From positions 71,622 to 95,621 of the forward strand of contig CAZMRW010000001.1 in NCBI GenBank assembly GCA_964568805.1: 24,000 bases of DNA, in the 5' to 3' direction. This DNA comes from an uncultured Methylococcaceae bacterium. Its GTDB lineage: Bacteria; Pseudomonadota; Gammaproteobacteria; Methylococcales; Methylomonadaceae. The notes below the pieces were generated by a model. The model saw only the letters and a list, made by a program, of their open reading frames with translations, searched no databases and was not told the origin of the DNA. A program made the position numbers and the translations under genes. Below are positions 7,185 through 9,983 of the stretch, one piece after another (within the stretch, counting starts at the first letter, position 1; each line of letters starts with the position of its first letter).

Positions 7185-7937
7185 ATGTCAGTCAATATTT
7201 CAAATCGGGCTGTTCAGCCCTATACCGGAGAAAAAGCCAGGATTACCCGCGCTTACGATTATCTGATCCTGGTATTGGCACTTTTTCTGTTTATCGGTTC
7301 CTTTCATCTGCATTTTGCGTTGACCGTCGGTGACTGGGATTTCTGGGTGGACTGGAAGGACCGGCAATGGTGGCCGCTGGTAACGCCTCTGATGGGCATT
7401 ACCTTTCCGGCGGCAGTGCAGGCCGTCTTGTGGGATAAATTCCGTCTGCCGCTGGGCGCCACCTTGTGTGTCTCGGCCTTGTTGATAGGAACCTGGGTAA
7501 CCCGGATATTCGCCTATCACTACTGGAATTATTTCCCCGTCAACATGGTGTTGCCTGCAACGATGCTGCCGGGTGCGCTCGCCCTGGACGTTATTCTGAT
7601 GTTGAGCAACAGCCTGACGATTACCGCGATTTTCGGAGGCGCGGCCTTCGCGCTGCTGTTCTATCCCAGCAACTGGCCGATCTTCGGCCTGTTTCATCTG
7701 CCTGTCGAGTACGGTAATGGTCAGTTGACGGTAGCCGATCTGTTCGGCTTTGAATACATCCGGACCGGCATGCCGGAATATTTGCGGATCATTGAAAGAG
7801 GCACATTGCGTACTTACGGACAATACGCGACGCCGCTATCGGCATTTTGTTCGGCCTTGCTTTGCTCTCTCATGTACACCCTGTGGTGGTACATCGGCAA
7901 GTGGTTCGCAACTGTTCGTTACCTTACCAAAATCTGA
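7185..7937 (+). CDS. pxmA: Copper membrane monooxygenase subunit A, pXMO-type (PmoA/AmoA family)
   Basis: 250-aa polytopic membrane protein with PmoA/AmoA-family features (GDWDFWVDWKDR.WWP, YPSNWP, HLPVEY). A GGAG RBS sits 10 nt upstream. It is the first gene of an A-B-C ordered operon, which distinguishes pxm from pmoCAB/amoCAB. Confidence 0.85.
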   Translation: MSVNISNRAVQPYTGEKARITRAYDYLILVLALFLFIGSFHLHFALTVGDWDFWVDWKDRQWWPLVTPLMGITFPAAVQAVLWDKFRLPLGATLCVSALLIGTWVTRIFAYHYWNYFPVNMVLPATMLPGALALDVILMLSNSLTITAIFGGAAFALLFYPSNWPIFGLFHLPVEYGNGQLTVADLFGFEYIRTGMPEYLRIIERGTLRTYGQYATPLSAFCSALLCSLMYTLWWYIGKWFATVRYLTKI

Positions 7938-7950
7938 CGGAGGCCGGTTT

Positions 7951-9189
7951 ATGAAAACGCTATTTAACAAATGCCTGGCATCGCTGGGGCTTATACTTTC
8001 GTTGTACGCGCTCGATATCCAGACCGCCATGGCGCACGGGGAAAAGGCTTTGGAGCCGTTTATCAGAATGCGCACGATACAGTGGTACGACGTGCAATGG
8101 TCCAGGCAAAAATTCAATGTCAATGAAGAAGTCAGCGTCAGCGGCAAGTTTCATGTCGCCGAGGATTGGCCTGTCAGCGTTCCCAAACCGGAAGCGGCCT
8201 TTTTGAACCTATCGACGCCCGGGCCGGTGCTGATCCGAACCGAGCGCTATCTGAACGGTAAACCCTTCATGAATTCGGTGGCATTGCAGCCGGGCGGCGA
8301 TTACCACTTCAAGATCGTGCTCAAGGGACGCTTGCCCGGACGCTATCACATCCACCCCTTCTTTAATCTGAAAGATGCAGGGCAAGTGATGGGGCCCGGC
8401 GCATGGCTGGAAGTAGCCGGTGAGGCGTCTGATTTTACCAATGAGATCCTTACCATCAACGGGGATCTGGTCGATATGGAAACCTACGGACTTAGCAATG
8501 GCATCTTCTGGCATCTGTTCTGGGGTGTGCTGGCCACGGCCTGGCTGCTCTGGTGGCTGCGGCGGCCGTTATTCATCGCCCGCTATCGAATGCTGCAGGC
8601 AGGTATGGAAGACGAATTGGTCACATCAACTGACCGCCTGCTTGCCAAAGCCGTATTGATCGGCGTGCCTGTGCTGGTGCTGGCCATCAACGCGATGACG
8701 ATAAGCCGATATCCGAATACCATTCCGTTGCAGGCCTCTCTGGATCAGATTTTGCCGCTTCCCGCCCGGGTCAATGCCGGCGTGGTCGAAGTCGAAACCT
8801 TAAAGGCCGAATACCTCGTGCCGGAAAGAGCGATGACTTTCACCGTAAACATCAATAACAAAAGCGACAAACCGATCCAGATCGGCGAGTTTGCGACTGC
8901 CAATGTACGTTTTTTCAACAAGGATGTTACGGCGCCTGATCACACCAGTCCGAATGTTATGGCGGCCCCGGAAGGATTGAGCCTGGATAATCCTGCACCC
9001 ATACAACCCGGAGAACAACGTACGATGACGCTTATTGCCAGGGATGCGTTATGGGAGTCGGAGAAACTGGACGGGCTCATCCGGGATGCCGACAGCCGTA
9101 TCGGCGGTTTGCTGTTTTTATACGACTCCGTATTAGGCGAGCGATTTATTTCCAGCCTATCCGCCGCCGTGATTCCCAAATTCAATTAA
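7951..9189 (+). CDS. pxmB: Copper membrane monooxygenase subunit B, pXMO-type (PmoB/AmoB family)
   Basis: I place the start at ATG 7951 (RBS GACGGAGG, 13 nt after the pxmA stop). The ORF-track extension from 7750 overlaps pxmA and is rejected. The signal peptide ends ..TAMA|HGE, so His29 would be the mature N-terminus. An HIH motif (His133/His135, 8347-8355) is present. Two TM helices lie mid-protein and a C-terminal cupredoxin-like domain follows. Confidence 0.85.
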   Translation: MKTLFNKCLASLGLILSLYALDIQTAMAHGEKALEPFIRMRTIQWYDVQWSRQKFNVNEEVSVSGKFHVAEDWPVSVPKPEAAFLNLSTPGPVLIRTERYLNGKPFMNSVALQPGGDYHFKIVLKGRLPGRYHIHPFFNLKDAGQVMGPGAWLEVAGEASDFTNEILTINGDLVDMETYGLSNGIFWHLFWGVLATAWLLWWLRRPLFIARYRMLQAGMEDELVTSTDRLLAKAVLIGVPVLVLAINAMTISRYPNTIPLQASLDQILPLPARVNAGVVEVETLKAEYLVPERAMTFTVNINNKSDKPIQIGEFATANVRFFNKDVTAPDHTSPNVMAAPEGLSLDNPAPIQPGEQRTMTLIARDALWESEKLDGLIRDADSRIGGLLFLYDSVLGERFISSLSAAVIPKFN

Positions 9190-9209
9190 ATCTCAAGAGG
9201 AAAAACGCC

Positions 9210-9983
9210 ATGTCTACTACATCCGAACAATTACCCATATTGATAGAAAATGACAACAGAGTACCCTGGTATCTGCAGGATTTGCCAAGATACCTAAAGG
9301 GCTTCGGCGTTCTGACCGTCATCTATATCGGTCTGCGCCTGTACCAGGGCGCATTTGCCGTATCGTCCGGCCTTGATTCCACCGAACCGGCTTTCGAACA
9401 GTACTGGATGCGGCTGTTTTACATCGAATTGGGAATTCTCGCTGTCTTCGTGACCGGCATCTGGGGGTATTTGTGGTTTTCCAGGGATCGCAACCTGGAC
9501 AAGCTGGAACCGAGGGAGGAAATCCGCCGTTATTTTACTCTCACGATGTGGATCAGCATCTACACCTTTGCGGTATATTGGGCCGGCAGTTATTTCGCCG
9601 AACAGGATAATTCCTGGCATCAGGTGGCTATCCGCGATACGCCGTTTACCGCCAATCATATCATCGAGTTTTATTTCAATTTCCCGCTCTATGTGATTCT
9701 GGGCGGCTGCGCCTGGCTATATGCCAGAACCCGGCTGCCGCTGTATGCCAAGGGCATTTCGCTGCCGTTGACGCTGGCCGTATTCGGGCCGTTCATGATT
9801 CTGGTGAGCGTCGGCTTTAATGAATGGGGGCATACGTTCTGGTTTAGGGAAGAGTTTTTCGCAGCGCCCATTCATTGGGGTTTTGTGATCGGCGTCTGGT
9901 TCGCTTTGGGGGTCGGCGGCATACTGCTGCAAGGCACAACTCGTCTGATCGAACTGCTTGATGAGCTGGAAGATGCGCCATGA
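9210..9983 (+). CDS. pxmC: Copper membrane monooxygenase subunit C, pXMO-type (PmoC/AmoC family)
   Basis: I place the start at ATG 9210 (RBS AAGAGG, 20 nt after the pxmB stop). This 257-aa polytopic membrane protein carries D133-x3-H137-x12-H150 and N204-x3-H208-x13-H222. Those spacings equal D156/H160/H173 and N227/H231/H245 of Methylococcus capsulatus PmoC. Confidence 0.85.
   Translation: MSTTSEQLPILIENDNRVPWYLQDLPRYLKGFGVLTVIYIGLRLYQGAFAVSSGLDSTEPAFEQYWMRLFYIELGILAVFVTGIWGYLWFSRDRNLDKLEPREEIRRYFTLTMWISIYTFAVYWAGSYFAEQDNSWHQVAIRDTPFTANHIIEFYFNFPLYVILGGCAWLYARTRLPLYAKGISLPLTLAVFGPFMILVSVGFNEWGHTFWFREEFFAAPIHWGFVIGVWFALGVGGILLQGTTRLIELLDELEDAP

Follow-up and report, generated by a model that had tools for sequence, protein, structure and literature searches.

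Introduction

The hosts of pxm operons are proteobacterial methanotrophs, which usually carry pmoCAB, the genes of the canonical particulate methane monooxygenase (pMMO), as well. The pxmABC operon, which encodes the copper monooxygenase pXMO, was first described by Tavormina et al. in 2011, as cited in later papers (PMC6215863, PMC4594100). Its A-B-C gene order is considered the hallmark of pxm in a study that also discusses pxmABC in Methylocystis rosea (PMC6215863), tabulated carriers include Methylobacter tundripaludum SV96, M. luteus and M. marinus A45 (PMC12662621), and pmo and pxm are found together in 45% of 97 Methylobacter genomes (PMC12810054). Expression of pxmA increases 19.8-fold upon nitrite and hypoxia in M. 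album BG8 and approximately 10-fold under denitrifying conditions in M. denitrificans FJG1 (PMC4594100), and pXMO is widely treated in the literature as an alternative low-O2 methane monooxygenase. In this report, we focus on positions 7185-9983 of a 24-kb stretch of DNA (24,000 nucleotides; hereafter the window, always meaning the whole stretch) from an uncultured Methylococcaceae bacterium, which almost certainly correspond to an intact and selected pxmABC operon. Our comparative analysis shows that this operon belongs to an MRJP-LysR-pxmABC(-MFS) module conserved across genera and classes.

Results

An intact operon of the pxm type

The three genes, all on the forward strand (Table 1), are in the order A-B-C and tightly packed. 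The pxmA start codon is preceded by a GGAG Shine-Dalgarno sequence (7173-7176), the 13-nt gap between pxmA and pxmB (CGGAGGCCGGTTT) contains GGAGG, and the 20-nt gap between pxmB and pxmC (ATCTCAAGAGGAAAAACGCC) contains AGAGGA. The sensible start of PxmB, MKTLFNK, is internal to a longer raw open reading frame (ORF), and PxmC begins with MSTTSEQ. The gene order, both gaps and the individual Shine-Dalgarno sequences had been listed in an initial annotation of this DNA, and every coordinate was confirmed on the sequence. That annotation had also placed a divergent LysR gene, rather than pmoC, upstream of the operon and had seen no pmoD-like or copper-chaperone gene following it, and both points hold: there is no C-type gene upstream of pxmA, and a domain search found no PmoD-like or copper-chaperone domain in the ORFs flanking pxmABC. 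An Rfam scan of the entire window returned no family at threshold.

Table 1. Genes and predicted regulatory elements of the pxm locus (window coordinates)
Feature	Position	Strand	Description
pxmA	7185-7937	+	A subunit, 250 aa; PF02461 at 4e-121 (Pfam)
pxmB	7951-9189	+	B subunit, 412 aa; PF04744 at 5e-162 (Pfam)
pxmC	9210-9983	+	C subunit, 257 aa; PF04896 at 1e-94 (Pfam)
pxmA operator/promoter, predicted	7005-7069	+	Conserved intergenic blocks
pxmA box 1	7005-7019	+	ATGAATTATGTCGAT; conserved block
pxmA box 2	7026-7040	+	ATGAAATTTAAACAT; ATG-N9-CAT dyad with T-N11-A
pxmA -35-like hexamer	7041-7046	+	TTAACA; abuts box 2
pxmA -10-like hexamer	7064-7069	+	TACTGT; 17 nt after TTAACA
LysR-type regulator gene	6002-6931	-	PF00126 and PF03466; 309-aa gene call in contig L001; divergent from pxmA
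MRJP/yellow-family gene	4865-5959	+	364 aa; PF03022 at 7.7e-16; signal-peptide-like N terminus
MRJP operator/promoter, predicted	4769-4833	+	A/T-rich box 1, ATGAATAAAGATCAT, TTAACA, 17-nt spacer, TACTGT
MFS transporter gene	10164-11390	+	PF07690 at 2e-43; oxalate/formate-antiporter or monocarboxylate type

Membership of the copper membrane monooxygenase family (CuMMO) is indicated by matches of the three proteins to the three family Pfams and, above cut-off, to the bacterial AmoA, AmoB and AmoC models of NCBIfam. In a phmmer search against all PDB chains, subunits of pMMO and ammonia monooxygenase (AMO) were the only strong matches (1e-89 for A, 3e-110 for B and about 1e-76 for C). Pxm subunits clear by a wide margin the cut-offs of the NCBIfam equivalog models named "bacterial ammonia monooxygenase AmoA/B/C." These models therefore fail to separate Pxm from Amo and Pmo, with the consequence that automated annotation names pxm genes amo, which can mislead surveys.

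When GTDB species, each represented by one genome, were scanned with an A-subunit alignment, 80 loci were recovered whose A subunits are 81-93% identical to the window PxmA. These include M. tundripaludum SV96 (90%), M. luteus and M. marinus A45 (88%), Methylomonas methanica (86%) and the alphaproteobacterium Methylocystis rosea SV97 (81%), together with Methylomicrobium, Methylotuvimicrobium sp. KM1, Crenothrix polyspora and Methyloglobulus morosus. In a neighbor-joining tree of 133 A subunits (246 columns, Kimura distances, 300 bootstraps), in which two solved PmoA, reconstructed from PDB alignments, serve as references, the window PxmA lies within a Pxm core clade with 100% bootstrap support, which also holds the A subunits of A-B-C operons from documented pxmABC carriers. 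Its identity to members of this clade is 72-94% (median 83%), versus 48-55% to all proteins outside a wider Pxm superclade; the values for the solved PmoA are 49% (Methylococcus capsulatus Bath) and 53% (Methylotuvimicrobium alcaliphilum 20Z). The phylogeny that the initial annotation had proposed as a check thus places the A subunit outside the canonical PmoA clade, in a tree without labeled AmoA sequences. The A-B-C order is found in 76/76 Pxm-clade loci having all three genes, and a protein of Methylogaea oryzae (P0086) that clusters with M. capsulatus PmoA is encoded in tandem C-A-B operons; neither the C-A-B order nor the PmoA-clade A subunit of canonical pMMO is seen in the window operon. 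Finally, pxmA-specific quantitative PCR primers have been published for M. album BG8 (PMC4594100), and the reverse primer matches window positions 7338-7358 with zero mismatches (none expected by chance), while no match to the forward primer was found in the window within three mismatches. Clade, gene order and reverse-primer site together bear out the pxm assignment made in the initial annotation.

Comparison with described pxmABC operons shows nothing different in kind. Known pxmABC operons (SV96, M. luteus, M. marinus A45, Methylomonas methanica/denitrificans and BG8) share the A-B-C order, the ligand set and MRJP, LysR and MFS flanks with the window, have PxmA, PxmB and PxmC proteins that are 86-90%, 69-80% and 85-91% identical, respectively, and, in BG8, an identical pxmA reverse-primer site; the species is different, and the outer flanks of the window—zf_Tbcl/DUF6632 genes on one side and a DnaJ-domain gene on the other—are not shared with other pxm loci. 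The window operon is therefore a further ortholog of known pxmABC, in which every tested pxm feature (order, clade and ligands) is present. Its rarity had been overrated in the initial annotation, since Methylobacter, Methylomonas and Methylomicrobium commonly carry pxmABC. The pmoCAB operon of M. capsulatus Bath (PDB 1yew, 3rgb, 7ev9 and 7s4h) belongs to the same three-subunit family with matched CuB, CuC and CuD ligands, but differs by its C-A-B order, by an A subunit approximately 49% identical, by a PmoB His48 that is Gln in Pxm, and by the PmoC residues replaced clade-wide beside the metal sites in Pxm (e.g., G157N, S172N and M236R). Furthermore, pmo operons lack the flanking MRJP, LysR and MFS genes. 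Nitrifier amoCAB (PDB 9pxf, 9leg and 9cl6; matches of 1e-105 to 1e-71) is from the same family but differs by host, by its C-A-B order and by PDB scores lower than those of pMMO; the window A subunit is not in an amo clade, in a tree where labeled AmoA sequences were not placed.

Two further groups of A-B-C operons form, together with Pxm, the superclade mentioned above (100% bootstrap). Their A subunits are 66-69% (sister clade 1: L002-L004 and L090; e.g., P0030) and 58-65% (sister clade 2: L088 and L089; e.g., P0046 and P0036) identical to the window PxmA. Both resemble Pxm in order and retained ligands, but have a TetR regulator instead of LysR and other downstream genes. P0030, a "MULTISPECIES Methylomonas" protein, occurs in 131 index blocks, which reflects its spread in the collection, and its gene has a TetR gene upstream; the genus Methylomonas may thus harbor two different A-B-C operons. 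In sister clade 2, a TetR gene on the opposite strand is followed in L088 by an MRJP gene directly upstream of A-B-C on the same strand, and a gene of the 4-oxalocrotonate tautomerase family follows C in L089. We found no names for these two sister clades in the literature surveyed.

Copper ligands and clade-specific residues

In PxmB, codon 8035-8037 encodes the His within MA/HGE, where the slash marks the predicted signal peptide cleavage that would make His29 the N-terminal CuB ligand, and codons 8347-8355 encode HIH. In PxmC, DNSWHQVAIRDTPFTANH (9606-9659) fits the pattern D-x3-H-x12-H and NEWGHTFWFREEFFAAPIH (9819-9875) the pattern N-x3-H-x13-H. When aligned to 3rgb_A, H29/H133/H135 of PxmB coincide with H33/H137/H139 of M. 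capsulatus PmoB (CuB), while D133/H137/H150 and N204/H208/H222 of PxmC coincide with D156/H160/H173 (CuC) and N227/H231/H245 (CuD) of PmoC (1yew_C numbering, offset +23). These pMMO residues are what we take, from established structural knowledge, to be the CuB, CuC and CuD ligands. All nine positions are invariant in 76 related operons in a MAFFT alignment of the B and C proteins. At the sequence level, alignment to the solved pMMO chains shows the residues listed in the initial annotation to coincide with copper ligands. However, the statement that all copper-site ligands are intact stands for CuB, CuC and CuD but not for the bis-His site, because His48 of M. capsulatus PmoB is replaced by Gln44 in the window PxmB, as in all 76 Pxm operons.

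Set against the solved PmoC of M. capsulatus, Methylocystis sp. Rockwell and Methylosinus OB3b, 120 PxmC show 24 positions at which one residue is fixed in at least 97% of Pxm and differs from all three references. Several are close to the metal sites (PmoC numbering): G157N and T158S adjoin D156, S172N adjoins H173, L226F adjoins N227, and M236R is in the CuD helix; PmoC positions 157, 172, 226 and 236 correspond to N134, N149, F203 and R213 of PxmC. Most of these differences are common to both sister clades. This signature, defined against three canonical references, suggests a modified second coordination sphere or cavity. Since a homolog search with PxmC returned only Pxm-clade proteins (at least 74% identity), the canonical side of this comparison consists of the three PmoC recovered from PDB alignments.

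Host and selection

The host is a gammaproteobacterial methanotroph, uncultured and Methylobacter-like. Every module gene has its closest relatives in Methylobacter or Methylococcaceae genomes, the GC content of the window is approximately 50% versus 49.5% for M. tundripaludum (PMC12662621), and the exact PxmA is also found, with identical neighbors, on a 7-kb Logan contig from run SRR30303755. As the nearest species genomes are approximately 81-86% identical at the nucleotide level, this host is a distinct Methylobacter-like species.

The operon is under strong purifying selection. Pairwise Nei-Gojobori dN/dS against three close relatives (dS 0.7-0.9) ranges from 0.05 to 0.15, with values of about 0.05 for pxmA, 0.14 for pxmB and 0.06 for pxmC. 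The initial annotation had judged the enzyme competent-looking rather than decayed, a view that intact frames, ribosome-binding sites, CuB, CuC and CuD ligands, and dN/dS all favor at the level of sequence.

A module conserved across genera and classes

The order of genes in the window is MRJP (+), LysR (-), pxmABC (+) and MFS (+). The MRJP gene, whose start at 4865 is from the gene call on contig L001, encodes a predicted periplasmic β-propeller that matches PDB 2qe8 (1.8e-114), described as an "uncharacterized protein." For the LysR gene, a candidate regulator of pxmABC and of the MRJP gene, the best start gives the coordinates in Table 1, as opposed to a raw-ORF TTG at 6985. The nearest NCBIfam model for the MFS protein is SfMCT, which it matches below cut-off, and in the PDB it matches the L-lactate transporter 6g9x (1.2e-18).

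This arrangement is widespread. Among 83 Pxm-core loci of species genomes, counting for each gene the loci with enough flanking sequence, LysR is divergent and adjacent to pxmA in 74/78, MRJP is upstream in 60/69 (including eight of nine alphaproteobacterial loci), and a co-oriented MFS gene comes after pxmC in 42/50 gammaproteobacterial loci versus none of nine in Alphaproteobacteria. The association is reciprocal: in 45 metagenome contigs with MRJP relatives (68-82% identity) and enough room, pxmA lies beside MRJP-LysR in 41, three of which have MRJP in the opposite relative orientation. Of the other four contigs, one carries pxmC-MFS without pxmAB and three have no pxm genes. In the former (L115:4980-9774), MRJP-LysR is followed after approximately 170 nt by pxmC and MFS, with pxmA and pxmB missing, an arrangement that looks like a partial deletion of the pxm operon in nature; in the latter (L100, L119 and L154), MRJP-LysR has no pxmA within 5 kb. 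Two variants of the locus were also seen. In a Methylocystis metagenome-assembled genome (L069:2028-2714), a lone canonical pmoC (E-value of 1.9e-136 to PmoC of Methylocystis sp. Rockwell) is located approximately 0.5 kb upstream of MRJP-LysR-pxmABC, and in L071 a DUF6632 gene lies between the MRJP and LysR genes.

In gammaproteobacterial loci, MFS is possibly a fourth gene co-transcribed with pxmABC. The gap between pxmC and MFS is 20 nt in nine species and 180 nt in the window, where a terminator scan found no intrinsic terminator between the two genes and the fold of 9984-10163 is no better than that of shuffled sequences (z = -0.99). In a 2020 paper by Yu et al., "PxmABC; genes 3483 to 3486" are four genes responding together in M. 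tundripaludum mutants. We found no prior description of the pxm neighborhood or of the duplicated operator described below in the searchable literature, although the 2011 pxm paper may mention flanking genes.

A predicted operator/promoter shared by pxmA and the MRJP gene

The operator blocks were defined by aligning 24 LysR-pxmA intergenic regions, including that of Methylocystis rosea, in which the conserved block ATGAATTnTGTCAAT corresponds to box 1 in the window. Cross-species conservation, the sole source of the pxmA promoter prediction, points to ATG-N9-CAT boxes next to a divergent LysR-type regulator gene, the second of which abuts the -35-like hexamer. If transcription began some 7 nt downstream of the -10 hexamers, at about 7076 for pxmA and about 4840 for the MRJP gene, the boxes would be centered near -64 and -43. 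Boxes near -65 and in the -35 region are the classical arrangement of regulatory and activation binding sites of LysR-type regulators.

The same architecture is found upstream of the MRJP gene, where ATGAATAAAGATCAT is an ATG-N9-CAT box of the LysR type (T-N11-A). The 24-kb window contains exactly two copies of a 44-nt pattern, ATGAA-N7-CATTTAACA-N17-TACTGT, one at 7026-7069 upstream of pxmA and the other at 4790-4833, beginning 75 nt before the MRJP start codon. None is expected from 100 shuffles, even with one mismatch allowed, and searching the 14-base core with up to two mismatches revealed no further sites in the window. Elsewhere, a relaxed core is present upstream of pxmA in 117/130 fetched loci, and the core lies 71-83 nt upstream of the MRJP gene in 74/137, a count of about half of the loci that is partly due to a strict regular expression and approximate start-site estimates. 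The pxmA-side and MRJP-side sets have the same consensus architecture. Because box and promoter are shared, the LysR protein is predicted to control pxmABC and the MRJP gene as one regulon, and control of both through T-N11-A boxes is, in our view, probable.

Other genes in the window

Upstream of the module, 2693-4233 (-) contains co-oriented genes for a zf_Tbcl treble-clef protein, a DUF6632 protein and a 215-aa protein without a Pfam match, a cluster found with these neighbors elsewhere only on the identical Logan contig. Downstream, between the MFS gene and a homolog of MOT1-type MFS molybdate transporters (12571-13806, -; PF16983 at 2.8e-50), is a gene (11826-12392, +) whose 188-aa product has a DnaJ (J) domain at the N terminus (3.6e-18) as its sole domain and an uncharacterized C-terminal half; this gene is not kept beside pxm elsewhere. 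Next to the MOT1-type homolog is an L-serine dehydratase gene (14192-15589, +; SDH_alpha and SDH_beta). These are followed by adjacent EgtB-like (DinB_2 and FGE-sulfatase) and EgtD-like (Methyltransf_33, 3.5e-105) genes at 16555-18795, a probable ergothioneine biosynthesis pair by their domains, by a GDP-mannose 4,6-dehydratase gene and then an NAD-dependent epimerase gene (20575-22662, +; a GDP-fucose-synthase-like pair), and by the C-terminal part of a P-type cation ATPase (22725-23972, -) running toward the window end.

Discussion

Placing the operon in the window among known pxmABC leaves little room for two alternatives, both of which we consider extremely improbable. One is that this is a canonical pMMO or AMO operon with a gene order that is merely rearranged or misread, as might be thought from the NCBIfam names of the three subunits, all scored above cut-off as bacterial ammonia monooxygenase, and from catalytic ligands that are those of pMMO. 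However, these NCBIfam models do not tell Pxm apart from Amo or Pmo, the A subunit is just 49-53% identical to solved PmoA, it groups with described pxm operons in a separate clade with 100% bootstrap support, and A-B-C is fixed in 76/76 relatives versus C-A-B in the canonical relative. Clade and order together effectively refute a canonical pmo or amo operon. The other alternative, a decaying and non-functional CuMMO relic, could draw on published pxmA transcript levels that are very low relative to pmoA and on related contigs showing partial operon loss (L115; L100, L119 and L154), but is at odds with three intact frames each preceded by a ribosome-binding site, with the retention of all ligand positions, and with dN/dS of 0.05-0.15 at dS 0.7-0.9. 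Pseudogene decay was rejected on these grounds.

On the published evidence, pXMO is most likely an auxiliary monooxygenase for methane or another small substrate, induced by O2 limitation with nitrite or nitrate, and the chances that methane itself is the physiological substrate seem to us evenly balanced. The sequence of events might be as follows. Transcription of pxmABC would start from the σ70-like promoter TTAACA-17-TACTGT (7041-7069), on which the divergent LysR protein would act through T-N11-A boxes (7005-7040), switching on pXMO upon a signal tied to O2 limitation and nitrogen oxides. The same type of operator/promoter would drive the upstream MRJP gene, and read-through into the downstream MFS gene may occur. 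By homology to pMMO and AMO, PxmB would be exported and cut at AMA/H, leaving His29 as the amino-terminal CuB ligand, and PxmA, PxmB and PxmC would form a pMMO-like membrane complex in which copper at the D/H/H and N/H/H sites of PxmC would activate O2 for hydroxylation of a small hydrophobic substrate—methane or a closely related molecule. A different view, possible although we give it less credence, is that pXMO is the oxidizing core of a dedicated pathway for a small molecule other than methane, governed by one LysR-sensed signal, in which periplasmic MRJP processes the product or supplies the substrate and MFS moves a carboxylate. It would account for the conservation of MRJP-LysR-pxmABC(-MFS) across genera, with MFS dispensed with in Alphaproteobacteria, for the reciprocal linkage of MRJP to pxm in 41/45 contigs, and for the like operator/promoter before pxmA and the MRJP gene. 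It would also fit the sister-clade A-B-C operon (58% identity) that is immediately preceded, on its own strand, by an MRJP gene whose product is 59% identical, so that MRJP has diverged in step with the operon, as well as the PxmC replacements flanking the CuC and CuD ligands (G157N, S172N, L226F and M236R, in at least 97% of 120 PxmC). There is a precedent in the divergent CuMMO PmoCAB3 of Verrucomicrobia, which oxidizes acetone (PMC8630023). Nevertheless, neither gene linkage nor a shared motif tells which substrate is oxidized, the solved MRJP homolog 2qe8 is without known function, the MFS gene is absent in all nine alphaproteobacterial loci, the MRJP-promoter motif is present in only 74/137 loci, the signature comparison had only three canonical PmoC, and induction by hypoxia and nitrite fits methane oxidation equally well. 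We therefore advance just tentatively the corresponding proposal that pXMO is the catalytic core of a LysR-controlled module, with MRJP as an obligatory partner and a role other than bulk methane oxidation.

Our preferred reading—an intact pxmABC operon together with the regulatory model inferred for it—is, when taken jointly, highly probable, but several points weigh against it. The operator and promoter are consensus-level predictions, and a generic σ70 scan did not list the proposed pxmA promoter. The tree is a distance-based neighbor-joining tree in which the references of confirmed function are two solved PmoA, with AmoA, EmoA and HmoA labels not included. Substrate, metal content and assembly are all extrapolated from homologs approximately 50% identical. 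No pmoCAB lies within the 24-kb window. In M. album BG8, pxmA transcripts are approximately 1000-fold less abundant than those of pmoA even when induced (PMC4594100), and as late as November 2025 pXMO was described as having a "currently unknown function" (PMC12662621). A literature search on pXMO mutants returned no relevant genetics.

By itself, the operon adds one more ortholog to a cluster that has been known since 2011 and that roughly half of Methylobacter genomes carry. The added value is in its neighborhood, i.e., the conserved module, the reciprocal linkage with MRJP and the LysR box and promoter found before both transcription units. The function of pXMO has been an open question for approximately 15 years, and the module gives testable handles on it in tractable Methylobacter and Methylomonas strains. 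The effector of LysR could disclose the signal that induces pXMO, MRJP is a candidate accessory periplasmic protein for this enzyme, and the substrate class of the MFS transporter (monocarboxylate or oxalate/formate-like) may hint at the pathway in which pXMO takes part. If the module reading is true, pXMO would not be a stand-alone spare methane monooxygenase, but an enzyme whose product is processed, or whose substrate is delivered, by MRJP.

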